Part shown: positions 259-56,725 of the stretch, in pieces
Numbering within the stretch: position 1 is the stretch's first letter
Layout of the letters: the number at the start of each line of letters is the position of its first letter
From: a virus
Taxonomy: Duplodnaviria > Caudoviricetes
IMG/VR virus record: IMGVR_UViG_3300030104_002283
Span: 1 to 57,636 of that record
Direction: 5' to 3' (one strand)
Length of the DNA stretch: 57,636 bases
Notes under the pieces: model-generated
The model's input: only the letters and a program-made list of their open reading frames with translations
Databases searched by the model: none
What the model was told of the DNA's origin: nothing
Program-made: the position numbers and the translations under genes

Positions 259-1185
259 TTATCCCATTCCGCCTTGTAAAGCTTTGTATAAACCTAACCC
301 ACCTAAACCAAGACCTAACAACTGTTGTGTACCTGATGGACTAGGTGTGTATTGTGAAATTTGTGTTCCCGGTGTTACAGGTAAGCCTTGTAGTATTTGT
401 CCATAGAATCCTAGTTGTTGTCTTGGATAAGCTATTTGGTTTAAGAAATCTTTATAACCCATATCTAATCCAGCTTGTCTAAAGTTTCTTCCTACTTCTT
501 GTGCTTGTTGTGCTTGTGATAATCTATCAAAAGCTAATTTCTGTTGCATTGGAGCTTGTCTTCCTAAAAATTCTGCAGATGCTAATTGTTGTCTTGCAGC
601 ATTTAATTGATTAGCTCTATCTCTTTCAAACTGTTGTTGTGCTTGTGAAAAAGCATCTCTTTGTCCTCTAGCTTCTATATCGCCTAATTGTTGTCCTAAG
701 TTTCTTTCTCGTTCTGCTTGTAGTATAGCTTCACGATAACCACCTAAACCACCTGATTGTGCTGCTCTTGATTCTATTTGTTCTCCTGATATGTCAGATG
801 CTCTTTGTGCTTCTCGCTTTTCTATATCAGTTACTAGATTTTGAAATGGATTCATATACATACTAGCTATTCCACTATCAAATCTTTGTGGATTTACTAC
901 ACTTGTTCTAGCTAACTCTGATGCTTCTCCCATTTCTCTAGGTGCACCAGCTAATCCTAAGGCTGTTTGTCTAGCTGCTACTTGTTGTGCTTGTGGACTT
1001 TGTTCAGCTAATCTCTGACCTGTATAAGTTCTATAAGGATTTAAAGACTCATATTCAGTTCTACCTAATAACCTAGTAAAATATGGTGCAGCATATTCTG
1101 GTAAGTTAGTAGTTGTTTGTGTTACTTCTGTTTGTTGCGGTGCACTGCTGCTTTTTCCTTTACCCATTATTAAACCTCTTTTCAA
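259..1185 (-). CDS. Putative DNA ejection/pilot (internal virion) protein
   Basis: Gln/Ala-rich helical body, Gly-rich hydrophobic C-terminus (LLGLGLGGLGLY), position among internal virion genes; real start probably MGKGKS. Confidence 0.6.
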   Translation of the reverse strand: MKRGLIMGKGKSSSAPQQTEVTQTTTNLPEYAAPYFTRLLGRTEYESLNPYRTYTGQRLAEQSPQAQQVAARQTALGLAGAPREMGEASELARTSVVNPQRFDSGIASMYMNPFQNLVTDIEKREAQRASDISGEQIESRAAQSGGLGGYREAILQAERERNLGQQLGDIEARGQRDAFSQAQQQFERDRANQLNAARQQLASAEFLGRQAPMQQKLAFDRLSQAQQAQEVGRNFRQAGLDMGYKDFLNQIAYPRQQLGFYGQILQGLPVTPGTQISQYTPSPSGTQQLLGLGLGGLGLYKALQGGMG

Positions 1186-1639: not shown

Positions 1640-4470
1640 TTAGGTAACACCTTTCCTTTATTTAATTCTTTTGGTTGTTTAGTAGTGTTAGTTCTTTCTT
1701 GTCTAACTCTATTTAATAATTCATCAAGTTCTTTTGCACCTGCATCAGAAGAGCCATCTCCTAATCCTGATACAACATCAGCTGGAACTATGTATTCACC
1801 GGGAGATACAGCTACACGCTGTTGACTTCCAATCATACCTAAAACTAAATCGTCCATACCTCCGCCCATGCCTTCTACTATACCTTGTGTTTGTGCAGTT
1901 CCATCAGAATTTAAAACTTGTTGTCTTATCATCATAAACATTTCATTACCATATTTTTCTATAAACATATCAATAACTTGTGTATTATTTGGAACTTCTC
2001 CTAATATAGCCATTTGCACTTCTCTTATTTCATCTGGGCTAGGTGTTAAACCTCCTGCTTGTAATTCAAATCCCATTTGTCTCACAGCATCTTTACCTTT
2101 TTCTGTTTTAGCTAAAGCTTGTAATCCTTTTGCATCATCAGGTATTTGTTTACCTTCTTCCATCGTAAATGGTAAATTGTTTCCTATAGGCAATCTTTCT
2201 ATAGACATAAAATCATCACGCATTGGTGGTGTTGGTAATTGTATAAAAGGATTTTCTATTACATTTACTGGCGGCGTTGGTGGTGGTGGAACTGGCGGTG
2301 GAACTACTGGTGGCACTACTAGCGGTGAAACTATTTGTGGTGCTACTGGTGGTGGTGTAAATGGTACAGATAATTCATTTGGCATTGGGGGAACTATTGT
2401 ATCCATTACCGGTGGTAGTGTTGATGGTAGTGTTGGTGGTACCATTAAACTTTCTGGTTCAAAAAAATCTTCTGAACGCCTAATACCCGGACCAAAACCT
2501 CTATCTTCTAATGGTATTCTTGGCATAGGCTCTGGCATAGGCATAGGCTCTGGCATTGGGGGAACTATTGTATCCATTACCGGTGGTAGTGCTGGTGGTA
2601 TAAATGGTACATCTTCTCCTAAAGGTTTAGGTGGTGCCATAGGTGGGGCTATAACTGCAGCTCTTAAACTTGGGTTGGGTTCTACCATAGACATAGGCAT
2701 ACCAATATCTCTCATATCATTACCCATTCTATCTATAGACATAAAATCATCACGCATTGGTGGCATAGGGTCTGTCATAGGTGTAATGTTTGGAGTGTAA
2801 GGTTGTGAATATAAATTACTCATATCTATATTTACAGGGTCAAACATAGGACCAAAGTCTCTTCTTTGTTCATTAAATCTATTATTAGGTTCCATCATGT
2901 CTATAAGACTTTGTTCTATTCTAGGATTACTTAACATATTAGCTGCTATATAAGGATTTATTCCACCTAAATCAAATCCTGTTTGTCCAAGAAAATTACC
3001 TAAACCTGTTAAAGATGAAGCACTTCTATTACCACCGGGTAAGTAATTAAACTCTGGGTCAATACCGGGTCTGTAATTAGCAGATGGTTTAAATTGCCCT
3101 GATGCTATAGGATTTCCTTCTGCATCTAACATAGCTGTGCCTGTCATTGGGTCTATTACAGGTACAGACTCTGCTGTTACTGGACCACTAAGTTGTTTAG
3201 GTGGTGTGTAATAAGCATCAAGACCACCAGACATAGCAGCTTCAAAACTACCTGTAGGTGGTGGTGGTGGCGGTTGTAATCTATCTATAGGTGGCGGTGG
3301 AAATCTAAGTTCATCTCTATCTTCTCTTGGTGGTCTTATTCTTGCTTTTCCGGGTAAAGAACTTACAGAAGTTAATGGTTCTTTATTTTGTGTTTCTCTT
3401 ATTTTATTAATATTTTCTAATTGTTGTTCTGGTGTATTTGCAACTCTTTTACCAAAAAAGTATTGAGGTATTTCTCCACCTTCTTTACCATAATAATAAG
3501 GACTACTCATTGGTATTTGTTCTGGATACATAGCCATTAATTCTTCTTGTTCTCTTATTTTTCCAAGCTCATAATCTTTCATAGCTTGTTCAAAATCTTC
3601 TTGTGCTTGTATAGTACCTCTAGTACCTTCACCTAAAGCTATTGGTAAAAATGAACTAGGTTTAGATAAACTTGATGCTAAATTACCTGCACCTGTTCCT
3701 AAACTAAATCCTTGTGAACCTTCTATTATAGCTCCTGTAGTTGGGTCTATAGTTCCCGGACTTTGAAATGCTTGTTTTAAATTTTGAAATAAAGTTGGGT
3801 TTTTTGCTGCTTCTCCTGCTACATTACTAGCAATAGGTGCAACATCATATGGTATATTTGCTACAGTTTTTGATACTGGGTCAACAAATGTTTGAGCTGC
3901 AGCTTGTTTAGCAGCACTTTCTTGAAGACTTTGAGCAACAATATTTTGTGCTTGTGTGTCTGAAAGCACATCAGTTATAGCAGCACCTGTATTTGTAATT
4001 GGTCCTGTTACTGCTCCTACACCACCTGTTGCTCCCGGAAGTCCTACTATATCATCTGCAGCAGATTGTAAGGCTTGTTGTGCTGCACCACTAGCTGCTT
4101 CTGTTCCTGCTTGAAGTCCTTGTGCTGCTGTTCCTGCACTTTGTAATGCACTACCCAAACCAAAACCTGTTATACCTGCTAATATTCCTTGTTTTAAATC
4201 TCCTGTTTGAACAGCAGTTGCTAAACCAGAACCTAATGCTCCTGCTGCTAAATTACCCATAGTTCCGCCAAGTAAAGCACTACCACCTAAAGAACCTAAT
4301 AGCGGTGCTAAAAAAGGTAAGAAAGCTTCAGGCTGTCCTGTTTGTGGATTTCTTGTTAATGGCATTACAGATGCTAACCCTTGCATTTCTACAGGATTAA
4401 CATGAAGTAACATATTATCGCCATAACGACCTTGTGCTGCTACATTTTGGGTTTGTTGTCTTATATCCAT
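1636..4470 (-). CDS. Internal virion/ejection protein with Pro/Met-rich low-complexity region
   Basis: N-terminal GRYGDNMLLHVNP..E / NPQTGQPEAF motif, Gly-rich hydrophobic segment, C-terminal G.GGGMDD...VSPGEYIVPADVVSGLGDGSS motif. Confidence 0.65.
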   Translation of the reverse strand: MDIRQQTQNVAAQGRYGDNMLLHVNPVEMQGLASVMPLTRNPQTGQPEAFLPFLAPLLGSLGGSALLGGTMGNLAAGALGSGLATAVQTGDLKQGILAGITGFGLGSALQSAGTAAQGLQAGTEAASGAAQQALQSAADDIVGLPGATGGVGAVTGPITNTGAAITDVLSDTQAQNIVAQSLQESAAKQAAAQTFVDPVSKTVANIPYDVAPIASNVAGEAAKNPTLFQNLKQAFQSPGTIDPTTGAIIEGSQGFSLGTGAGNLASSLSKPSSFLPIALGEGTRGTIQAQEDFEQAMKDYELGKIREQEELMAMYPEQIPMSSPYYYGKEGGEIPQYFFGKRVANTPEQQLENINKIRETQNKEPLTSVSSLPGKARIRPPREDRDELRFPPPPIDRLQPPPPPPTGSFEAAMSGGLDAYYTPPKQLSGPVTAESVPVIDPMTGTAMLDAEGNPIASGQFKPSANYRPGIDPEFNYLPGGNRSASSLTGLGNFLGQTGFDLGGINPYIAANMLSNPRIEQSLIDMMEPNNRFNEQRRDFGPMFDPVNIDMSNLYSQPYTPNITPMTDPMPPMRDDFMSIDRMGNDMRDIGMPMSMVEPNPSLRAAVIAPPMAPPKPLGEDVPFIPPALPPVMDTIVPPMPEPMPMPEPMPRIPLEDRGFGPGIRRSEDFFEPESLMVPPTLPSTLPPVMDTIVPPMPNELSVPFTPPPVAPQIVSPLVVPPVVPPPVPPPPTPPVNVIENPFIQLPTPPMRDDFMSIERLPIGNNLPFTMEEGKQIPDDAKGLQALAKTEKGKDAVRQMGFELQAGGLTPSPDEIREVQMAILGEVPNNTQVIDMFIEKYGNEMFMMIRQQVLNSDGTAQTQGIVEGMGGGMDDLVLGMIGSQQRVAVSPGEYIVPADVVSGLGDGSSDAGAKELDELLNRVRQERTNTTKQPKELNKGKVLPK
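2198..2763. repeat. Intragenic direct repeats (32 bp at 2198/2732; 41 bp at 2380/2551)
   Basis: Exact copies encoding PPMRDDFMSI and LPPVMDTIVPPMP. Confidence 0.85.
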
Positions 4471-32255: not shown

Positions 32256-32284
32256 TTGACACGATACCCCACATAAACTAACAT
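32256..32284 (+). promoter_or_regulatory. Sigma70-type early promoter
   Basis: TTGACA (32256-61), 17-nt spacer, TAACAT (32279-84) at the strand divergence point. Confidence 0.75.
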
Positions 32285-32286
32285 AC

Positions 32287-32730
32287 GCAGTGTTGAGGGA
32301 TTGATGAGACCCAAAAAAGCGAAGAAAAAGTAGCTAACTCCCCTTTCCAAGACACCCATAACGAGACATCTAGTTCTCCTTGAAGTTGGGCTTCGCAACG
32401 AAGCAAAACGATTTGGGTTGCCTAGAGCAACACAAGGTATCGGGGAGACAAACAGAACGGGCTAAACTGGAAATGCCTATCGTGAAAAATCCGAGCATCA
32501 AGCTTTTGTGCGTTTATCCAGTATCCCGACAGTGTTGCCTTTGATGGTTCAATACCGATTTTGCGGAGAATGTAGCGGTTCTACCCTTGATTGAGTTTTT
32601 AAAACTGGCTTAGTGTCCTACTGAACATGGAACGGGGTGTAGCAGTAAAAGTGCTAATTCTGATGGTGTAGCAAAGTCTTTCTCTAGGGGCTAAAAGGTG
32701 TTGTGTGTAGTCAGAAAATCCCATGCTGTT
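32287..32730 (+). ncRNA. Large structured non-coding RNA candidate
   Basis: No ORF of 60 aa or more, GC-enriched, begins just after the promoter, with many nested complementary segments including 5'/3' end pairing GGGATT/AATCCC. Confidence 0.65.
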
Positions 32731-32769
32731 GTGAGTTTTTTGCTTATGTATTAACGATTTAATATTTGA

Positions 32770-32825
32770 TTATGTCCTTGAATTAACAAGCTGAACGAGT
32801 ATCCGCAAGGGTACAAGAAACATAA
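32770..32825 (+). ncRNA. Hammerhead ribozyme 1 (type III, variant core)
   Basis: TTATGT-C / CTTG-aattaa-CAAG / CTGAACGA / GTATCC-gcaa-GGGTAC / aa-GAA-ACATAA; predicted cut after GUC (32776). Confidence 0.75.
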
Positions 32826-32835
32826 CGGAGAAAAT

Positions 32836-33234
32836 ATGAGTTTTAATACAGCATACATAACAACATCAAGACATGGTACAAAAGATTATACGAATGGGCT
32901 TGATGAGATAGTAATTTCAAAAGAGATAGATTGGAACGATGACAATAGAAAAGATGAATTGGTATTTGGGAAATACTATGCTACTAAAGAAGAAGATAAG
33001 AATAATAAAAATCTTTATAAATTAGAGTATAGAAGTCAATTTGGCTTTGTTTTAAAGCCATATAACGAACATAGACCAAATTTAATTGGGGCTATGAATA
33101 ATGGAGTAATTGCTGAAGTACCATTTGATATTTGTAAACAATTAAAAGCATTTGTTGGTTATCCAATATCTAAATATATGCCTGTTCACGATAGATATGA
33201 AACGCAAAAACAGTACGATATGAATTTCAGATAA
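32836..33234 (+). CDS. Early hypothetical protein
   Basis: RBS GGAG at 32827; C-terminal P.HDRYET..QY. Confidence 0.75.
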   Translation: MSFNTAYITTSRHGTKDYTNGLDEIVISKEIDWNDDNRKDELVFGKYYATKEEDKNNKNLYKLEYRSQFGFVLKPYNEHRPNLIGAMNNGVIAEVPFDICKQLKAFVGYPISKYMPVHDRYETQKQYDMNFR

Positions 33235-33296
33235 ACCTATTGATAAGCAACACAGAAAGGTGGCGAAAACAAGGGCTGTATGTCCTTGTTCTAGGT
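33235..33296 (+). ncRNA. Hammerhead ribozyme 2 (type I, U3-A8 core)
   Basis: ACCTA / TTGATAA / GC-aa-CAC-agaaag-GTG-GC / GAA / AACAAGGGC-tgtat-GTCCTTGTT / C / TAGGT; cut after UUC (33291). Confidence 0.85.
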
Positions 33297-33324
33297 AATT
33301 ATATTAATTTTTATAGGAGTAAAT

Positions 33325-33513
33325 ATGAGTGAATTTAATCAAGTAAAATACTTAAAGAAATGTTTGAAAGAAGCAAGAGGAAAATTAGCATATGCAGTTA
33401 TGGAAGATATGTCTGATTTTATAATCAAAAGCTGTGAAGATTCTTGTAAAGCAATTGCTGAAGCATTAGAAGATGCTAAATTTTTAGAAAGTAGAAAAGC
33501 GGATTTTGAATAA
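33325..33513 (+). CDS. Early hypothetical protein
   Basis: RBS AGGAG; lies between two hammerheads. Confidence 0.7.
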   Translation: MSEFNQVKYLKKCLKEARGKLAYAVMEDMSDFIIKSCEDSCKAIAEALEDAKFLESRKADFE

Positions 33514-33526
33514 TATCAAGATTTAA

Positions 33527-33587
33527 ACCTATTGATAAGCAACACAGAAAGGTGGCGAAAAAGCGGACACTTGTTCGCTTTCTAGGT
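33527..33587 (+). ncRNA. Hammerhead ribozyme 3 (type I, U3-A8 core)
   Basis: Same 38-nt 5' half as ribozyme 2 but a different, still paired stem III (AAAGCGGAC-actt-GTTCGCTTT); cut after UUC (33582). Confidence 0.85.
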
Positions 33588-33607
33588 AAATTTTTAAAGG
33601 AGTAAAA

Positions 33608-33790
33608 ATGAAAGCAAATATTTATAAAATTAAATCAAAACAATTTAAGGTTTTTAATGGTATGACCATCAAGGCTTTAAATCCAGCAGAAGCGAAACAA
33701 GAGTTTAAAAATCTTGTTCAGCTTGAAACTAACGAGGTTGTGAAAAGCAATCAATTTAAAATTACGCTGAAATATGCGGGGGTAAATTAA
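33608..33790 (+). CDS. Early hypothetical protein
   Basis: RBS AAGGAG. Confidence 0.7.
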   Translation: MKANIYKIKSKQFKVFNGMTIKALNPAEAKQEFKNLVQLETNEVVKSNQFKITLKYAGVN

Positions 33791-34095: not shown

Positions 34096-34112
34096 TTAAA
34101 TAAGGAGTAAGT

Positions 34113-34446: not shown

Positions 34447-34485
34447 ATTGTTTAGAAATATTAATTTGTTTCTATTGGAGTAATT

Positions 34486-34608
34486 ATGAAATTATTTAAT
34501 GATTTCAAAAAATTTCTTTCTGACATGAGAGGGTTAGAAAGATTTAACTGGTATGTATTGAAGCCTTTGGCTTTAATATTTGTATTAATAGCTTTTAGCA
34601 TTTTTTAG
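34486..34608 (+). CDS. 40-aa membrane peptide (not in ORF track)
   Basis: RBS GGAG; MKLFNDFKKFLSDMRGLERFNWYVLKPLALIFVLIAFSIF. Confidence 0.6.
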   Translation: MKLFNDFKKFLSDMRGLERFNWYVLKPLALIFVLIAFSIF

Positions 34609-37779: not shown

Positions 37780-38046
37780 GTGAGTATGAAAAATAAGTAT
37801 TTAATAATTAGCAAAAGAAATGGAGACTTAGGTATTAACAAAGATGGATTTGTTCAATATCGTAATTTTTCTGATGAGCCATTAGTGATGGTGGTTGAAG
37901 AAGAAACTCCATTCACAAAACAAGATGCATTTAATGAGTTTGCATCTATGGTAGAAACTACAGAAGAAAGAAAATTAAATATTAACCATTTTAATATTTT
38001 CAGTGGGGCTGACATTGATGATATTAAATATTACTGGGGGGCTTAG
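37780..38046 (+). CDS. Hypothetical protein
   Basis: RBS TAAGGAG. Confidence 0.65.
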   Translation: MSMKNKYLIISKRNGDLGINKDGFVQYRNFSDEPLVMVVEEETPFTKQDAFNEFASMVETTEERKLNINHFNIFSGADIDDIKYYWGA

Positions 38047-47563: not shown

Positions 47564-50500
47564 TTATCTTACTACAGCTTTGTCTCCCAAGCCTTGTAAA
47601 TATTCTTTTCTTCTTCTCATTATTTGTTCTGCTCTTAAATAATCATTTTTTTGTTCTGCTATGCTATCTAATCTAATTCTTTTTTCTTCTGAAGAAAGAG
47701 TTGAACTATTTATTATTGATGCTTCTGCGGTTCTAAATTCTTTTAATTCATCAGCGACTTTTTGTAATTCTTTTTGCAATCTTTTTAAATCTCTCATGTA
47801 TTCTATTTTGTATTCATCTGTTAAACCTTTTGCAAACTTGTCTCTTTTTTCTATGTTATCTTCTATTACTCTAAATGTATTTATTGTGTCATCTACATCT
47901 TTCTTTAGATTATAAAATTGGTTTTCATAATTACTTCCCTCTTTTGGTAAAAGAAATCTACCTATTACTGGAAGTTGGTCAACGCCAAATTTTACTCTTT
48001 CCGCATCTGTTAAACCCTCTCTTAAAACACTATCTGTTGCTATCATTAAATAACTTCCTAATGTTCCTGTATAACCTCTAACAAGATTTTCTACATACAA
48101 AGGGCTAATGTTTAACTCATCTCCTATTACTTTAGAAAGAGTATCTGTTTGTGGTCTATAACCCGCATCATCAGTTCCTTTTAAATAGTCAGGCACTATT
48201 TGTCTGCCTGTAAACAAATCATAGTTAGCAAAGTTTTCTACAAGAGGGTCAACAGCCGTTGGTAATGTTAAAGAGAAAGTATGTCTTGTCATTTTTTTAA
48301 TTCTTTTAGCAACATCTTCTCCTGCTACATCATCTGCAAAATAAGATGTAAGCCGTTCGGGAACAGTCATACTAATTAGTCCGACTTCAAAAGGTTTAGG
48401 TATTACTAATGGAAAACCGCCTGTTATTTTTTTGCTTCCGGGTATAATTAAATAGTTATCTTTTATTTCATCAGGTGCTTCTTCATATTCTTCTGAATCT
48501 CTAACTAAAAAATAATATCCGGGCATCATAGCCATTATTGTTGCTAGTCTTAACCACACACTTTTTGTTCTTTTTGATGGACTTAAACCTCTACCTATTC
48601 CATATCTTCCTGTTAAACCTCTATAAAAAACATCTAGTCCTTGTAGCCTAGGATTTAAAAACATTGTCATTTGTTGATATGTTTGAAAAGCTTTATTGTT
48701 ACCACGCCTTGTAAAGTTTAAAACTTCTAATGCTTGATAAATTGCTTCAGCTTCGTTGCCTGTTCTTTTTAATGTATCTTTATATACAGCAACTCTAGTA
48801 GCAGCATCTGTTATAGCTGTACCTTGTCCTAGTATATCCCATAAACCAGTTACTAAATCTATAGGAAACATATAAATTTTTTCTGCTGTTGGTCTTTCAC
48901 TTTTAAAAGCATTTTTATAGTAACCATCAATAAGACTTTGTGTGCTATCTATTTCTCTTATACCTTTGTCATAGCCTGTTATTATTCCTGCATTTTTTAA
49001 TTTAACAAACTCTTCTGGAAGTCTGCCGGTAATCATTCCTTTAGCTATCCTAAAAGTTTCTGCTACTGAAGAAATCACTGGTATATAATTAGCACCACTT
49101 AAAGTATAAGCAGATAATGAATCTCTTAATATTTGTGCAATCCAAAAAGCAGGAGCTCTTGTTATTAAATCACTAACAAATCTTTTAGTTCCTCTTGCTA
49201 TATTCATAAGAAGATTCATAGGTGCATAATCAGCTTCTGACATTACATTCATTGAATAATATAACATTGGGTCATCTATTTTAAAGTTTGTATTTTTTCC
49301 TTTAACTCTTATAGTAATTACATCTGGTCCTTTAACATTACCTTTAACTTGTTTAGCTACTTCTAAATCTATAAGATTACGCATTACTCTATTAGCTGCT
49401 ACATTTTTCATACCTAAATTTATAGCTGCTCTTAAATTGTTTGTAATGCCAGTAATAGGGTCAACAATATCTTTTGTTTCACTACCTTTAGCTTTTTGAA
49501 ATGGAGTTATAGATAAACCTTGAAATATTTTTGGTCCTTTAAATCCTTCCATTCCTTCTAGCGGTCTATAAAAAGGAATGTAATCTGAATTTGCTAACCA
49601 TGTTTCTGCTGTCTTTGCATCTAATACACCAGTATCAACTAAAAATTGAACTGTATGTTCATTAGTTCTATTGTACTCATCAATCATAGTTTGTACTTCA
49701 GGATAATCTTGTAATACTTGTTTAGCTTTTTTTCTATCGGCTGCTGTTACTTTTACTTTCCTACCTTCTTTATTAAATCTTGTTTCTCTTTTAACTCTTT
49801 GTACTGCTTGGAAAGCCCAAAGTAAATTAGGATTTTTATAAGCTGGTGCAAATATATCAGCAAAAGGTAAAACAGGTTTACCATCTATTTGTGATATATC
49901 AGTTACATAAGTGTATCCTTTATCTTTATCATAACGAGGAAAACCTCTTATGAAAGATTGCATAAATATATCTCCTGACCTATCAGAAAAATATAAAGCT
50001 GCACCTGCTGACATACTAGCAAGTAACATTTGGTCTCCGTATTTATTTTTTTTACCTGCTTTAACATCTGTTAATGCTAATCTTCCATACCTATCTGCTA
50101 TTTGTTCTCTAACTTTCATACCAAATTCTTTGGTAGCATCAATAGGTTTAAAGCCTTCTAATACAAGTTGACCAATAGTTTTACTTTCAATAGTGTCATC
50201 TCTTACTGTTAAATTTTCTATTAACTCTTCAGCATTTTGATTTAAAGGATTTTTATTTTTATTAAATGAATACTTTAATTTAATATCATTTGGTATGTCA
50301 TTAATAATAGAATCTACATCTGCATTAGTTTCAGATGTACTATTTTTAATTTCTTTTTGTGCTTCTATTGCTGCGGATACAGCACTAGGCGATGCATTAG
50401 TATTTATTACAGGAATTAAACCTGCTGCTATAGAGTTTTGTTCTTGTTCTTTTGCAGTTTGGATATTTTCTTTATCTTGTTCACTAAGTTCCGGTTGTTC

Positions 50501-53500
50501 TTCCGAGCTTCCTCTTCTGCTTCTGCTTCTATTTCTATCAACGATTCTATCGTCCTGAAATAATTGGGCGGTATCTTCTTCGACAATTTCTTCTCCTAAT
50601 TTTTTAGTGTTATTAATATAAGTAAAACCAACATTAGGTGTTGCTGTTCTTTTTACATAATCTTTTAATGCATTGTAACTATCTTTTACTTTATTATCTA
50701 TTGATACTAAATAATCAACAGATACAAACCTTCCTGTTTCACCAAATCTAGTAATAGCTCTTACTATAGCTTGATTTATATTAGCATCTGGATAAACAAT
50801 ATCTACTTTATATCCTCTGCTTTGCAAATCTTGCATTATATATTTAATTTTACTTATATCTGGTTGCCTACGATTATTAGTTTTACCTGCAACTTTAGGT
50901 ATTATTATATTTGCACCTTCTTCTATAAATTGTTTTTGAATTTCAGCAGCAATATATTTTGAAAATTTATGTGTAGCATTAGCTCCTATACCATTTTTAT
51001 ATTCAGGCATTTGTTTTTTAGCATCATCAGCATCAACTATTGCATAACCTTTTCTTGCAGCTATATTTTCAGCAAATGTTGACTTACCTGTAGCTGGTGG
51101 TCCAATTATTATGACTGCTTTTTTATCGTATTTTAAATTACCTTTTGCATATTCTGTGGCTATGTCTGTTAACTCAGGAATCATTTCATTCATTCTTTTG
51201 TTTCTTTGAGCTTCAGTTAAATTATCATAAACATCAGGTATAGCTAATGCTTCATTTTGCATAGCTAACATAGCTGGGTGATTTACTAAAGCATACATAT
51301 CATCTGCATTTATATTATCATTTTGATATTGCGGTTCGTTTGCTAACAAAATTAAATCTGCTTTTGCATCTAACAACTCTTGTCTAGTTAAAGTTTTTAT
51401 TTGCTCTTGTGGAACATTAAAATTTCCAGATGTTATAGTTTGAGTATCACCTTGTATTATTATTCTATCTCTTTGAATTTTATTTACATCTTGTAAGTGT
51501 GTAGTTAAAACTTGTTTACCTGTAGTATCTCCATAATCATCTATTAAAAAGTTTGTTGGTATTAAAAGTTCTTGTTCTCTTATATAGTTATATCTATCGG
51601 CATATAAATTATTTGCATCACCAAGCATAGACTCACCCCTATATAAAGCGTTCATATTTACTGCTATAGCTTCTTTAGGTAAAAGATATTTTTTAACATT
51701 GTAGCCATACTTAGCTATATCTTCTGGTCTGCCTTCTGCTCTAAGTAATTGTCTTCCAAATTCTTCTAATGTTACATTTGGTTCTATTGTTCCATCTTGT
51801 TTTCTTTTGTAATAAAGTTCCTCTATTCTTTCATTTCTTCTTAGTAAATTTTGTCCAAAAGATTCTGCTATAAATTTATTAGTTGTTGTAGGTATTAATT
51901 GATAACTGTCATCTATACGACTTCCTCTGTACACAACTATTTCTTCAGGAAATAATTTTATAGATTCTTGTGTAACAAAATCTATACCATCAGAAATTTC
52001 TTGTGCTTGTACTACAGATAAATTTGGAAATCCAAAACCATAATGAAACAATCCTTGATTTTTTCTATTGCCTGTTAATTGTTTCACAAAAGCTTTAGCT
52101 CCTAAAGTCATTAATGGTGCTATATATTCTGAACCTTCTCCTCTTCCATCTTTTAAAAATTCTTTTATAGGCGGTGGTATTGATGCAACAGTTCCATATA
52201 AGTTTCTAAAGTATCCTTCTAATGTAGGTGCACCTGATTGTTCTTCTAGTGTTGCTTTTACATCATCAATTAATCTACCATTTGTTTCTCTTAAAGAGTA
52301 TTTTAAATTACCCAATTCAGGCGGGTCTTCTACAAAAGATGTTGAGACTGTTTTTTTATTATCATTTGATTTTACTAACAGATTTGGATTATTAGTATTT
52401 TCTAAAACTAAAGTTTTATGTCTTTCAGATAATTCGTTATCACCAAATATATTATTTAATTTTTGTGTAATGCTTGAACCATCTCCAGTAATATATTCAG
52501 GTTTTTGACTAAATATAAAATTAGAACCTAGTAATAATGGATTTAATAATATAGCTTGTGGTTTAAATAAAACAGGAGTTATGTATTGGTCGTATTCATT
52601 TTGTTTATTTGGTCCTACATTATTGCCTATATATTTTTGGTATTTTTGTTGAGTTATAAATGGGCTTTCTATTCTTTTACTTGCATCATTTATATTATTA
52701 TATACAGTTAAAGTATCCATACCTTTAGCTACATCTGTTTCTCCTATTGCAAAACCGACATAATAATCACTATCTGAAAGTTTTCTAAATTTATATTCTG
52801 CAAATGTAGCTTTACTATTTGGTGTTATGTTATTTGCTTGTAAATATTCTTGTGTTGTTGCAAATAAAAGTTGACTACTTTTTGCAATTTTAAAATCAAG
52901 GTTATTATAATTTATATCATTAAAATTACTTGTTTCTCTTAGTTTATTATTTTTATCTTTAATTATATTTGTTAAAGTTTTTTGAAAACCATCTAACTTT
53001 ATTAAAGGATTTGTAGCATTATTAACTTGTCTTTTATAAACATCTAATACTATATTTTGAATATTTGTATCTATTACAGGACTCCATTCTCTAAATTTTC
53101 TATCGGTTTCAAATGGTCTTGTATTACCTATTTGTTCTTCTAGTTTATTTTCAATTTGTTGTTCAGTTAAACTAAATGCAAGACTTGGCTCATCAGATAC
53201 TGGCGGTTTAGGTTTAATATTAAGAGGTGTTGATTGTTGTAACTGTTGTAATTCTTGTGTAGTTCTTATTGTTCCTCTTGGTCTAGCTGCTATTTCTCCT
53301 GTTACAGCAGCTTCTAAAATATCTCCAGCTGATTTATATTTAGTTTTAAATACAGCGTTTGCTAATCCTTTAAAAAAATTAGATGTTTTTTGTAATGCGT
53401 TTCTAGGTCTGCCAGTTATTTTTTTTGGATTATTAATATAATCTTCAAACATAAAAGCTATTGCTTCATCTACAAAATCAAATTCACTGGTATATCCCGG

Positions 53501-56500
53501 TTTACCTTCATACCTGTCTAAAGCTTCTTCGTAATAAGTTTTACCATCTTTTCTTATTTTAGTTTTAGCAAAATTTTCTAAAGCATTTATTTCTTGTGCC
53601 GTAAATAAATCAGCTTGTCTTAAAGCGTGCCAACTTTCATGTCCTAAAGTTTGAGATATATTTTGTAAAAACTTTTTAGCTCCATTTTTTTCAGATAAAA
53701 CATTTAAGTCTGCTTTATCTAAAGATAAAAGTATTTCATTTGCTGCTCTATCAAATACACCATCAGCTTGACTAAAATTTATATTATCTCTATTTTTTAC
53801 TCTATCTAAAAAAGTAGTAAATTTTAATTTAGTTTCCGGTAAATTAAGTTTATCTGATAACTTTATAATTTCTTGTTGTACTGTTTCTATTGCTTCATTT
53901 AAACTTGTTTCTACTAGCGGTCTTAAACTTCCATCAAAATTATATTTTCTATTAGAAGTACCTGTAAATTTAAAATCGTTATCTAAATAACCAGCAGTTA
54001 CAAATGTTTGTCTTAAATTTTCTGCAGCTTTTTTATTTAAACCTGTTGAGTCTTGTATGTTTTTTATAGAAACTTTTTTGCCCACATCTATTTTTTCTAA
54101 GCCTTCTAAAGCTATTGAATAATCATTTATGTTGTAAGCTGTAGCACTTAAATCTAATAATTTTGTTTCTGTATTTGCTTTGGGTAGTCTATTAAAAAAA
54201 GAATATAATAATCTTTTTTGAGGTAGCCCCATTTTATTTATATCTGTTTCAGCTACTAATCTATTTGCTACATATTTAAAAGCATTTGAATCTACAGTAT
54301 CAATTATGTTTAAGTCTTTTAATAAACTGTTAAATGTTTTTTTAGAAAAAGACTTTTGTTTAACTTCGCTAAAATTATTTTGTTCGGTTTGATATTTTAA
54401 AACTTTATTAAATTCTGTTGGAGTTAAAAATTCTTTTAATGTATTTGCATTTACTAATGGATTAAATTTTTGAATCTCTTTTATTTCTGTTAAAGTTTCT
54501 TCTGATATATTTAAAGTTTTTAAATCGTCAATATGTATATCTAATAAATAAGAATTATTTATGTTATCTACAAAATCTAATATTAAATTATTATCTGCAT
54601 CTACATTTTGTTCTATAGCTTTTTCTTGCGACCATTGAATTTCTGCTATCATATTAGAACGCTTTTGCAATTCTGTTAAAACATCTACAGCATATTGTTG
54701 GTCTTTATATCTAGCAACTTCATTTTCATTTAAGTCTGTTATAACAAAATCACCATTTTCATCTGGTAAAATATTTCCTTGTTTATCAAAACGACTTTTA
54801 AAATAATTATTACTTTCTACACCAGAATTTTTTTCTATAATTCTTACAATATTAAAATTATTATCTTGTAATATTTGGTCAGCTTCTAATACTGCAGGAG
54901 TAAAACCTGTATAATTTTTAAAATTTTCTTCTTGTTCAAAAACTAATCTTTGTGCTTCAATAGAAATTTGTGCTGGGTTTGCATCAGGATTTAATTGTTG
55001 TATTCTTTGAAACTCTTTTTTTATTTTAGCTTCTATCTCTTTTCTATATGGGTCCTCTACTGGTAAACCATTTAATTTATCTCTATAATCTTTAACTGCC
55101 CTAATTCTATCTTCATATAATTCTTTTTGTCTTTTTGATTTATTAGTTGTATAAGCAGAAGTAAGTTGTGCTACAGGCACTTCAACAACTGAAAATCCAA
55201 ACTCTCCAACAACTTCTAAAGCAACATCTCCTATTCTTATTTGCTCTCCTTCTTCTAAAGTAGAAAGTTGTGCAAAGTATTCTCCTGCTCCACCTAATGT
55301 TCCTTGTAATGGAGCTTGAACTAAACTATTAATTAAATGTCTTGATGCATTATCTTTTATTGTATCTTTTGCAAATATAGTTCCTCTTGATGGAGCTATA
55401 ACTTTAGGAGCTAATTTAAAAGCTGCAGCATCAAACGCACCAATAAAGACTCCTCTTTTTATTACATATTGTCTAAGTCTTTTTCTGTTATCGTCTTCAT
55501 TTAAAAAAGCTACAACAGCTTTTTCATCATTTATATCTACACCATTTTTTCTTAAAAACTCTGTAGCTGAATATACAGTATCTACTGAACCAGAAGCTAT
55601 ACCTGTAGCTATAGAACCAGCTGTATAACTTCTTGTTAACATACTTGTGCCAACACCTGCAGATAAAGAAATACCCATTGGTACCAAACTAGAAGCTACA
55701 GTTTGTTTCACGATGCCAGTAAAATCAGATAACAATATATCTACTGCTTCTTCTGTGCTTTCAGCTTCTGCAAATGCTTTAAATGTTTCAGAAGTTTTTA
55801 CATTTTGTTGTTTACTTATTGCACTAGCTATTTCTTCATTAGCTATTTCTTGCGACCTTAATAATCCAAAAGGGGGTATTCTTTTACCATCATATATAAA
55901 ATCCATTGGGTAAGTTCCATACAAACCACCATCAGTAATACCACCATATTCTCTGTTTCTATATTCTTCTTCTCCTATTTTGCTAATTCTTTCTAAATCT
56001 ATTTTTGTATCTTTGTCTGTTTTATTACCTAGTGTATAAGGAGTTATTGTGCTTATATCAACACCATCGTATTTTCTTCCGTAAATTATTTGTTGTAAAT
56101 AATCTATTCGTTCTCTGTCTTCTTTAGTTTTATTTACTTTATTATTTATTTCTTGTAGTTCTTTTTTTATTTTTACTATAAGTTCTTCATTTCTAATTTT
56201 TTCTTTTTGAAAAGCTATTTCACCAAAAAATTTTTGTGCACCTGATTCAGTTATAGTATCAGTTACTCCTGTTTCTTCTCCAAAAAAAGATGGACTTGCT
56301 TCTTTTTCTTCTTCAGTAAATTTTCTTTGTGGACCTTGTGTAGCTCTTTTATATATGGAAGGTATTAAATCTGTTGCTACATATTTAATATTTTCTAAAC
56401 CTTGTGTTATTGCAGATGTATTTAGACCGGGCATAGGAGAAAAATCTCCAACTCCTAATGCAGAAAGTGCAGCTAATTTATCTCCTGCAGAAACATCATC

Positions 56501-56725
56501 TGATTCGAGTAAATCAGTAATGCCAAATTGGGTTTGAGGTTCGATTTGGGGTTGGGTTTGGGGTTGGGTTTGGGATTGAGATTGGGGTAATGTAATGGAA
56601 TCTTTAGAAAATTTTATAGGTTCAACATTATTATAATATTGTTCCCATTTTTTAATATCTTCATCTGTTGCATTATCAGGCAACTCATGGGTAATATTAT
56701 CATTTGTTGTAATATATTTAGGCAT
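47564..56725 (-). CDS. Giant polyvalent virion/ejection protein (metallopeptidase, ART-like, zeta-toxin-like kinase, LPD38-like)
   Basis: 3053 aa; HESWH; VYRG...TTT...A..FG...EQE; IIGPPATGKST...VDAD..K..MPEY; C-terminal NF.R.G, PKPFE.G, ENLVRGYTG..G. Confidence 0.75.
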   Translation of the reverse strand: MPKYITTNDNITHELPDNATDEDIKKWEQYYNNVEPIKFSKDSITLPQSQSQTQPQTQPQIEPQTQFGITDLLESDDVSAGDKLAALSALGVGDFSPMPGLNTSAITQGLENIKYVATDLIPSIYKRATQGPQRKFTEEEKEASPSFFGEETGVTDTITESGAQKFFGEIAFQKEKIRNEELIVKIKKELQEINNKVNKTKEDRERIDYLQQIIYGRKYDGVDISTITPYTLGNKTDKDTKIDLERISKIGEEEYRNREYGGITDGGLYGTYPMDFIYDGKRIPPFGLLRSQEIANEEIASAISKQQNVKTSETFKAFAEAESTEEAVDILLSDFTGIVKQTVASSLVPMGISLSAGVGTSMLTRSYTAGSIATGIASGSVDTVYSATEFLRKNGVDINDEKAVVAFLNEDDNRKRLRQYVIKRGVFIGAFDAAAFKLAPKVIAPSRGTIFAKDTIKDNASRHLINSLVQAPLQGTLGGAGEYFAQLSTLEEGEQIRIGDVALEVVGEFGFSVVEVPVAQLTSAYTTNKSKRQKELYEDRIRAVKDYRDKLNGLPVEDPYRKEIEAKIKKEFQRIQQLNPDANPAQISIEAQRLVFEQEENFKNYTGFTPAVLEADQILQDNNFNIVRIIEKNSGVESNNYFKSRFDKQGNILPDENGDFVITDLNENEVARYKDQQYAVDVLTELQKRSNMIAEIQWSQEKAIEQNVDADNNLILDFVDNINNSYLLDIHIDDLKTLNISEETLTEIKEIQKFNPLVNANTLKEFLTPTEFNKVLKYQTEQNNFSEVKQKSFSKKTFNSLLKDLNIIDTVDSNAFKYVANRLVAETDINKMGLPQKRLLYSFFNRLPKANTETKLLDLSATAYNINDYSIALEGLEKIDVGKKVSIKNIQDSTGLNKKAAENLRQTFVTAGYLDNDFKFTGTSNRKYNFDGSLRPLVETSLNEAIETVQQEIIKLSDKLNLPETKLKFTTFLDRVKNRDNINFSQADGVFDRAANEILLSLDKADLNVLSEKNGAKKFLQNISQTLGHESWHALRQADLFTAQEINALENFAKTKIRKDGKTYYEEALDRYEGKPGYTSEFDFVDEAIAFMFEDYINNPKKITGRPRNALQKTSNFFKGLANAVFKTKYKSAGDILEAAVTGEIAARPRGTIRTTQELQQLQQSTPLNIKPKPPVSDEPSLAFSLTEQQIENKLEEQIGNTRPFETDRKFREWSPVIDTNIQNIVLDVYKRQVNNATNPLIKLDGFQKTLTNIIKDKNNKLRETSNFNDINYNNLDFKIAKSSQLLFATTQEYLQANNITPNSKATFAEYKFRKLSDSDYYVGFAIGETDVAKGMDTLTVYNNINDASKRIESPFITQQKYQKYIGNNVGPNKQNEYDQYITPVLFKPQAILLNPLLLGSNFIFSQKPEYITGDGSSITQKLNNIFGDNELSERHKTLVLENTNNPNLLVKSNDNKKTVSTSFVEDPPELGNLKYSLRETNGRLIDDVKATLEEQSGAPTLEGYFRNLYGTVASIPPPIKEFLKDGRGEGSEYIAPLMTLGAKAFVKQLTGNRKNQGLFHYGFGFPNLSVVQAQEISDGIDFVTQESIKLFPEEIVVYRGSRIDDSYQLIPTTTNKFIAESFGQNLLRRNERIEELYYKRKQDGTIEPNVTLEEFGRQLLRAEGRPEDIAKYGYNVKKYLLPKEAIAVNMNALYRGESMLGDANNLYADRYNYIREQELLIPTNFLIDDYGDTTGKQVLTTHLQDVNKIQRDRIIIQGDTQTITSGNFNVPQEQIKTLTRQELLDAKADLILLANEPQYQNDNINADDMYALVNHPAMLAMQNEALAIPDVYDNLTEAQRNKRMNEMIPELTDIATEYAKGNLKYDKKAVIIIGPPATGKSTFAENIAARKGYAIVDADDAKKQMPEYKNGIGANATHKFSKYIAAEIQKQFIEEGANIIIPKVAGKTNNRRQPDISKIKYIMQDLQSRGYKVDIVYPDANINQAIVRAITRFGETGRFVSVDYLVSIDNKVKDSYNALKDYVKRTATPNVGFTYINNTKKLGEEIVEEDTAQLFQDDRIVDRNRSRSRRGSSEEQPELSEQDKENIQTAKEQEQNSIAAGLIPVINTNASPSAVSAAIEAQKEIKNSTSETNADVDSIINDIPNDIKLKYSFNKNKNPLNQNAEELIENLTVRDDTIESKTIGQLVLEGFKPIDATKEFGMKVREQIADRYGRLALTDVKAGKKNKYGDQMLLASMSAGAALYFSDRSGDIFMQSFIRGFPRYDKDKGYTYVTDISQIDGKPVLPFADIFAPAYKNPNLLWAFQAVQRVKRETRFNKEGRKVKVTAADRKKAKQVLQDYPEVQTMIDEYNRTNEHTVQFLVDTGVLDAKTAETWLANSDYIPFYRPLEGMEGFKGPKIFQGLSITPFQKAKGSETKDIVDPITGITNNLRAAINLGMKNVAANRVMRNLIDLEVAKQVKGNVKGPDVITIRVKGKNTNFKIDDPMLYYSMNVMSEADYAPMNLLMNIARGTKRFVSDLITRAPAFWIAQILRDSLSAYTLSGANYIPVISSVAETFRIAKGMITGRLPEEFVKLKNAGIITGYDKGIREIDSTQSLIDGYYKNAFKSERPTAEKIYMFPIDLVTGLWDILGQGTAITDAATRVAVYKDTLKRTGNEAEAIYQALEVLNFTRRGNNKAFQTYQQMTMFLNPRLQGLDVFYRGLTGRYGIGRGLSPSKRTKSVWLRLATIMAMMPGYYFLVRDSEEYEEAPDEIKDNYLIIPGSKKITGGFPLVIPKPFEVGLISMTVPERLTSYFADDVAGEDVAKRIKKMTRHTFSLTLPTAVDPLVENFANYDLFTGRQIVPDYLKGTDDAGYRPQTDTLSKVIGDELNISPLYVENLVRGYTGTLGSYLMIATDSVLREGLTDAERVKFGVDQLPVIGRFLLPKEGSNYENQFYNLKKDVDDTINTFRVIEDNIEKRDKFAKGLTDEYKIEYMRDLKRLQKELQKVADELKEFRTAEASIINSSTLSSEEKRIRLDSIAEQKNDYLRAEQIMRRRKEYLQGLGDKAVVR

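Follow-up and report, generated by a model that had tools for sequence, protein, structure and literature searches.

The early gene block

The window analysed here is a complete IMG/VR virus record of 57,636 bp (IMGVR_UViG_3300030104_002283) from an uncultured marine phage. By large terminase, the nearest phages are the Pelagibacter phages HTVC027P and HTVC023P (54-56% identity), and marine metagenome runs contain the phage. Structural and packaging genes on the minus strand end with the terminase subunits and are followed by a promoter-like site, a leader and a block of plus-strand genes. The order in this block of early/replication genes is ORFs of 132, 62, 60, 100 and 64 aa, an ATPase, a DUF3150-like gene (a weak, sub-threshold assignment) and an HNH endonuclease. 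Neither PHROG nor Pfam gives a match for the 132-aa ORF. The first two spacers of the block, which measure about 95 nt, are occupied by the elements that are the subject of this study, two hammerhead motifs on either side of the 62-aa ORF (Table 1).

Table 1. Features of the hammerhead locus, in coordinates of the window. Cleavage sites and RNA products are predicted.
Feature	Position	Strand	Details
Best sigma-70-like promoter match	32256-32284	+	TTGACA, 17 nt, TAACAT; 10/12 consensus
132-aa ORF	32836-33234	+	TAA stop at 33232-33234 is the conserved UAA, hammerhead model positions 1-3
Hammerhead 1, type I	33235-33296	+	Predicted cut 33291/33292; C17 = 33291
Hammerhead 1, stem I	33235-33239 with 33292-33296	+	
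Hammerhead 1, core U3-A9	33240-33246	+	UUGAUAA; G12-A14 at 33265-33267
Hammerhead 1, stem II	33247-33264	+	
Hammerhead 1, stem III	33268-33290	+	
291-nt RNA from double cleavage (predicted)	33292-33582	+	5'-OH UAGGU, leader, GGAG, 62-aa ORF, hammerhead 2 body
3' end of the 291-nt RNA (predicted)	33582	+	C17; 2',3'-cyclic phosphate, from established hammerhead chemistry
62-aa ORF	33325-33513	+	Between both hammerheads; GGAG ahead; start 33 nt past predicted cut of hammerhead 1
Hammerhead 2, type I	33527-33587	+	Predicted cut 33582/33583; C17 = 33582
Hammerhead 2, stem I	33527-33531 with 33583-33587	+	
Hammerhead 2, core	33532-33538	+	UUGAUAA; G12-A14 at 33557-33559
Hammerhead 2, stem II	33539-33556	+	
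Hammerhead 2, stem III	33560-33581	+	
60-aa ORF	33608-33790	+	Start 25 nt past predicted cut of hammerhead 2

The transcript bearing both hammerheads presumably starts at the promoter-like site, a match that weighs little because the region holds 10 promoter consensus matches against 13.0 expected from shuffles. The leader that follows (32285-32830, plus strand; about 550 nt) contains no ORF longer than 54 aa and exceeds its flanks in G+C content. It is about 92% conserved in a related phage and is covered by contigs from other marine samples. Rfam gave no match to this leader, which folds no more stably than shuffles do (z +1.13). A repeated leader/ribosome-binding module, AATTTTTATAGGAGTAAATATGA and its variants, precedes several of the small early genes, whether or not a hammerhead is present, and lies on the plus strand at 33306-33328, 33589-33611 and 34467-34489.

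Two type I hammerhead motifs

The original prediction proposed twin type I hammerheads with a U3-A8 core, and the sequence features on which it was built are all in place. An identical 38-nt segment is present exactly at 33232-33269 and 33524-33561 and at no third place in the record; its 29-nt core part occurs only at both copies and had 0 matches in 100 shuffles. The sequence TCTAGGT closes both copies after their variable hairpins (33290-33296 and 33581-33587). These stem III hairpins differ from each other and stay fully paired, as had been claimed, through three double (compensatory) and two single changes when the hairpins are aligned in register. The core UUGAUAA, described as CUGAUGA with the C3-G8 pair swapped for U3-A8, holds all hammerhead core positions. 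The fragment that would be excised is indeed 291 nt long and carries the 62-aa ORF together with its GGAG.

Minimum free energy (MFE) and centroid predictions both fold each copy into a three-way junction (z -2.74 and -2.69). Stem I has 5 bp (ACCUA/UAGGU), stem II has 2+3 bp (GC-AA-CAC/GUG-GC, with an AA bulge) and stem III has 9 bp, of which the first is an A-U pair. The segments UUGAUAA, GAA and C remain unpaired at the junction. The reverse strands of both copies do not give such a three-way junction fold. In their core positions and in their three-way fold, both elements are type I hammerhead motifs.

Two other places in the window bear a partial likeness to the motif. A 13-nt exact copy of the motif start (UAAACCUAUUGAU) lies at 50087-50150 on the minus strand, inside an ORF of 3053 aa (47564-56725, minus strand) that is itself very large for a 57.6-kb phage. 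UAGGUA follows about 45 nt later, and there is neither a GAAA core nor a stem III (E 0.39-0.42); given the missing GAAA core and the position within an ORF, this likeness is probably due to chance. The sub-threshold candidate at 37863-37923 (plus strand), which contains CUGAUGAG and also lies within an ORF without a GAAA core, was rejected as a chance match.

Specificity of the motif and curated models

A strict alignment-free descriptor of type I hammerheads was run over both strands of the 57.6-kb record and finds exactly the two sites. It requires positions 3 and 8 of the core to pair, GAAA to follow stem II without a gap, A15.1-U16.1, a residue other than G at H17 and a stem I that closes directly. 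By comparison, 200 locally shuffled records give a mean of 0.305 loose matches and of 0.005 matches with stems this long. Curated models behave differently. Over the whole window Rfam reports nothing at gathering score, and around the site at E<=10 it reports no hammerhead family, only chance-level rows of non-hammerhead families. At the same E value, RF00163 (Hammerhead_1; gathering score 34 bits) has no match in the record and RF03152 (RAGATH-1-hammerhead; gathering score 56.3 bits) has none in the window. A canonical relative of the two copies (contig L188) aligns with RF03152 over its full length at 35.2 bits (E 8.7e-05), below that gathering score, and nine contigs of the family described below yield no Rfam hammerhead at gathering score.

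The covariance model of this family (R2), run with filters off, scores copy 2 at 82.6 bits (E 4e-24) and copy 1 at 76.4 bits (E 4.5e-22), and the next-best match in the record reaches only 16.1 bits. We conclude that the copies represent hammerheads of a family that curated models under-detect.

A hammerhead family in marine metagenomes

Scans of viral contigs with the exact 29-mer and with a pattern fixing stem II returned a single relative, IMGVR_UViG_3300025127_000047. A looser scan (TTGATAAGC N{6,26} GCGAAA; at least 116 stretches) added to this known relative (contig L003) three weak, chance-like descriptor matches among the stretches listed. Protein searches were similarly unproductive: the 132-aa ORF led to no related locus, and the ATPase only to the one known relative. 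The family came into view in metagenomes, where the pattern TGATRAGCAAC N{4,14} GTGGCGAAA matched 97 stretches; it fixes stem II and GAAA, leaves position 3 free and admits R at position 8. Two covariance models were built, R1 from the U3-A8 copies and R2 from the whole family, most members of which are canonical. Model R1 gives 86 matches in 67 of 98 sources, all marine contigs, and these matches comprise 58 distinct sequences.

Stem II and loop II are nearly invariant in the family (GCAACACUGAAAGGUGGC), a conservation that is partly by construction for stem II and partly forced for the GAAA-containing loop II, given that members were gathered with a pattern that fixes stem II. Several R1 matches do have other stem II sequences, beyond the reach of that pattern. 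The A residues that flank stem I are kept in 54 of the 58 distinct sequences at each of columns 2 and 3, in 42 at column 117 and in 49 at column 118. These flanks and loop II were considered for a tertiary contact between stem I and stem II elements, of the kind that speeds cleavage, and no such contact could be demonstrated. No family member was found at E<=0.1 in the four isolated phages nearest by large terminase (HTVC027P, HTVC023P, 023Pt_psg01 and DSL-LC04; about 54-57% identity), and GenBank phages gave no blastn match to a canonical copy. A scan of GTDB genomes produced seven stretches that score at most 28 bits with R2, and these were dismissed as pattern-driven chance matches.

Individual contigs add some observations of their own. 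Two decayed or truncated remnants, at 353-401 of L189 (minus strand) and 573-626 of L204 (plus strand), keep stem III and the leader but have lost the core and stem II, from which it follows that family copies are sometimes lost. Contig L158 carries, on its minus strand, a U3-A8 and a C3-G8 copy side by side at 400-469 and 891-961, and in the second of these stem II is interrupted by a long insertion, which folds into an additional hairpin; similar but different insertions occur in L213 (580-667) and L181 (404-491). In L171, a Pistol ribozyme at 1024-1097 (plus strand; RF02679, 64.3 bits, which exceeds the gathering score) precedes a family hammerhead at 3715-3783 by about 2.6 kb, an arrangement that fits the known clustering of self-cleaving ribozymes.

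Covariation and core conservation

In the alignment of the 58 distinct sequences, which is fitted to the model and so leans towards its structure, 98.9% of 1033 cells are standard pairs, compared with 70.8% in shuffles. Sliding the 3' partners out of register leaves 30-41% paired. Changes on both sides affect 15 of the 19 pairs, and none of 500 shuffles reaches the values of the family. Double changes are seen in all 5 pairs of stem I and in 8 of the 9 pairs of stem III. Stem I alone occurs as ACCUA/UAGGU, AUACU/AGUAU, ACCAA/UUGGU, ACCCU/AGGGU, UUCCA/UGGAA and other variants. The strict descriptor, which needs no alignment, accepts 50 of the 58 distinct sequences; the eight failures are three truncated or decayed copies and five with a mismatch beside A15.1-U16.1.

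Two other approaches recover less of the structure. MAFFT followed by RNAalifold on 25 diverse members finds stem II only; since the length-variable stem III is misaligned in this procedure, the result is not evidence against stems I and III. Likewise, the single-sequence MFE structure is a three-way junction in 29 of the 58 members, as expected for a stem I that has 5 bp and is rich in A and U. Taken together, the comparative data strongly support an assignment of these elements as type I hammerheads with a compensated U3-A8 core and a covarying stem III.

With parts of the core fixed by the scan pattern (position 3 being free and position 8 restricted to R), U4, G5, A13, A14 and A15.1 are invariant in all 58 distinct rows, A6, A9 and G12 are kept in 57 and U16.1 is kept in 56. 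Residue H17, at the predicted cut, is C in 50 rows, A in four, U in two and G in one, the remaining row being cut off at a contig end. These patterns bear on the proposal that the elements are not ribozymes at all and that a repeated intergenic terminator, protein-binding site or RNase target happens to resemble a hammerhead. Such a proposal could draw on the silence of the Rfam hammerhead models over the window copies and on stem III, a stable hairpin of terminator-like appearance, but a terminator scan flags neither hairpin, no T-run follows them, and a mere hairpin would leave unexplained both the long-range stem I, which covaries at every pair, and the unpaired residues kept at hammerhead positions across 58 variants. 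With the chance expectation per record as low as the shuffles indicate (0.005), we regard this explanation as extremely improbable.

Genomic syntax and gene mosaicism

The position of the hammerheads relative to genes follows a regular syntax. The stop codon of the upstream gene supplies model positions 1-3 as TAA in 44 of the 86 family matches and lies one base earlier in nine; in seven of the 86 the upstream ORF stops at the UGA within the core. Downstream, an ORF of 30 aa or more begins 22-40 nt past the cut in 64 of the 86 matches. Two or three copies flank single genes in 18 of the 67 sources, of which 12 are non-duplicate arrangements, and the spacing between copies (291-882 nt) fits one ORF plus about 95 nt where this was checked.

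The genes themselves vary. The 80 downstream ORFs fall into 36 clusters, and the hammerhead type of copy 2 stands ahead of 7 different gene clusters and that of copy 1 ahead of at least six. Homologues of the 62-aa ORF come after hammerheads of other stem III types in L158/L198 and L156/L214, so this small ORF is a genuine and mobile gene. Those of the 60-aa ORF come after the same hammerhead type in L188, L155/L157 and L189.

Comparison of the gene content between the repeats with that of relatives, which had been suggested as a check, reveals that this content is not constant. The homology with the related phage is collinear, at 91.6% over 11 kb, up to the hammerhead and resumes at 34103. 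The related phage has one hammerhead, closest to copy 2 and downstream of its homologue of the 132-aa ORF, and is without the 292-bp unit that bears the 62-aa gene; a different gene follows its hammerhead. One more gene stands ahead of its 132-aa homologue and is followed by the UAGGUAA leader as well, here with no ribozyme. In other samples, DNA contigs have joints at the conserved leader sequences behind hammerheads and at the repeated leader/ribosome-binding module. The suggestion that the repeats serve as exchange points for early genes thus finds backing in the homology break at the hammerhead, in the variety of downstream clusters and in these contig joints, and at the level of observed mosaicism it is supported that the repeats may mark such points.

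The U3-A8 core

Positions 3 and 8 are C-G in 54 of the 58 distinct rows and U-A in four, and mixed pairs are absent (0 of 58). Of the four U3-A8 rows, two come from the window, one from the related phage and one from L158/L198, which has a third stem III type; the TARA scaffold L200 is identical and repeats the window. In most matches with the stem III types of the window copies, the core is the canonical CUGAUGA (11 of 14 matches of the copy 2 type, 6 of 8 of the copy 1 type). Since the four U3-A8 rows may stem from one or two events that were spread by recombination, they do not amount to four independent tests of the swap. Near-identical relatives that share stem III and have the canonical core provide a natural matched pair with which the cost of the swap could be measured.

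Activity of U3-A8 cores is said to be context-dependent, to judge from the title of a study cited by Perreault et al. The cleavage rate of the U3-A8 copies may be below that of their canonical relatives. A rival reading is that the copies are slow or inactive descendants of active ribozymes and that what matters now is their DNA, as boundary sequences for the recombination of early-gene cassettes. The U3-A8 core is indeed a minority state, degenerate remnants of the family exist (L189:353-401 and L204), mosaic breakpoints coincide with the elements, and the 38-nt identity between the copies suggests recent gene conversion. Against this reading, the two partners of the pair have changed jointly, no C-A or U-G intermediate occurs in the 58 rows, and the other core positions and the three stems are intact at both sites of the window as well as in L158/L198 and the related phage. 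The claim that the swap is known to retain activity is moreover borne out by Perreault et al. 2011 (PMC3088659), who report natural U3-A8 covariation and activity in vitro of variants of this kind. On balance, descent into inactivity seems unlikely.

Probable processing of the early transcript

We consider it probable (about 0.75) that the two elements are genuine self-cleaving ribozymes that process the early polycistronic transcript, and that their conserved DNA marks points at which gene cassettes are exchanged. Each hammerhead would fold as the polycistronic transcript is made and would cut it after C17, and the cuts would split the transcript into single-gene mRNAs. Hammerhead cleavage leaves 5'-OH and 2',3'-cyclic phosphate ends, the kind that RtcB joins. 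The downstream mRNA would consequently begin with a 5'-OH and a UAGGUAA leader of 25 or 33 nt that includes a Shine-Dalgarno sequence. For the upstream mRNA, the 3' end would be a compactly folded hammerhead that starts right behind the stop codon and terminates in a 2',3'-cyclic phosphate. The motif, covariation, syntax and mosaicism are observed; cleavage inside cells, the rate that the U3-A8 core allows and any influence on mRNA stability or translation are inferred.

At the level of DNA, short homologies for the exchange of cassettes between related phages would be supplied by each conserved half of the motif together with the leader behind it. Exchange at conserved motif halves would explain why the 5' 38 nt are identical in the two copies. 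The proposed processing has a precedent: Perreault et al. 2011 (PMC3088659) suggest that clustered prophage hammerheads process long transcripts into single-gene mRNAs.

A proposed circular coding RNA

The original prediction went beyond cleavage and proposed that the excised 291 nt could be joined head to tail, through the reverse reaction or host RtcB, to give a circular message from which the 62-aa protein is translated. Its structural premise holds, in that both copies have the same stem I, the termini of the fragment rebuild a complete hammerhead, and these termini are paired in both the MFE and the centroid structure predicted for the 291-nt RNA (z -2.37). The product ends expected of hammerheads are also suitable for RtcB, and stem I is common to all copies of a contig in 11 of the 12 non-duplicate multi-copy sources. 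Against these points, the termini pair in the MFE structure of only 5 of 12 comparable cassettes, the phage is without an RtcB or RNA_ligase domain, and a 5-bp stem I rich in A and U is a weak clamp. Duplication and recombination would account equally well for a stem I that is identical throughout a genome.

Perreault et al. 2011 (PMC3088659) state that circular or spliced products of clustered phage hammerheads were sought and none detected (data not shown there). A literature search on phage hammerheads, RtcB and circular RNA found, in titles and abstract openings, no report of a phage-encoded circular mRNA. A circularised coding RNA would be compatible with the sequence, which speaks weakly for it, and we hold it to be quite improbable. 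A broader version, in which a stem I shared genome-wide would let excised single-gene RNAs close on themselves or join another cassette, with the 291-nt RNA becoming a circular mRNA, is very improbable. If circularisation did take place, a DNA phage would be making an exonuclease-resistant circular message that encodes a 62-aa protein.

Comparison with known systems

The locus resembles retrozymes and viroid-like hammerhead circular RNAs in that two hammerheads with a compatible stem I bound a unit, the ends of whose monomer rebuild the ribozyme, and in that the predicted ends are of the kind joined by RtcB-type ligases. According to de la Pena et al. (PMC7229834, PMC7761336), retrozymes and viroid-like circular RNAs are non-coding and eukaryotic and replicate or retrotranspose through circular RNA. 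Unlike these, the present unit is a protein-coding cassette with a ribosome-binding site in the operon of a dsDNA phage. It is not a non-coding self-replicating unit of the retrozyme type, and the corresponding units of its relatives hold different, ordinary ORFs.

With RF03152 and RF00163 the family shares the type I topology, a 5-bp stem I after an A-rich stretch, a long stem III and a CUGAUGA...GAAA core. The upstream hairpin of RAGATH-1 (RF03152), in contrast, is not evident before copy 1. Members of the family may already stand in the alignments of Perreault et al. 2011 or in the description of RAGATH-1 (Weinberg 2017).

The closest counterparts are the prophage and phage hammerheads of Perreault et al. 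2011. These too form clusters, on the coding strand and around single genes or short gene blocks of varying identity, and U3-A8 covariation occurs naturally among them. The present family differs from these clusters in coming from uncultured marine phage contigs, in its near-invariant stem II and loop II, in its stem I of 5 bp between conserved A residues and in its built-in stop codon. Both U3-A8 cores in nature and gene-flanking phage hammerheads are thus already in print, and the locus is not a new kind of element. What the window offers is a clean natural example of the core swap from C3-G8 to U3-A8. Around it stands a sizeable hammerhead family in marine pelagiphage-like viruses, missed by Rfam thresholds, whose 58 sequences could seed a better model. 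Its regular syntax, in which a stop codon sits in the motif, the predicted cut comes 22-40 nt ahead of the next gene's start and each cassette holds a single gene, makes the role of clustered phage hammerheads testable.
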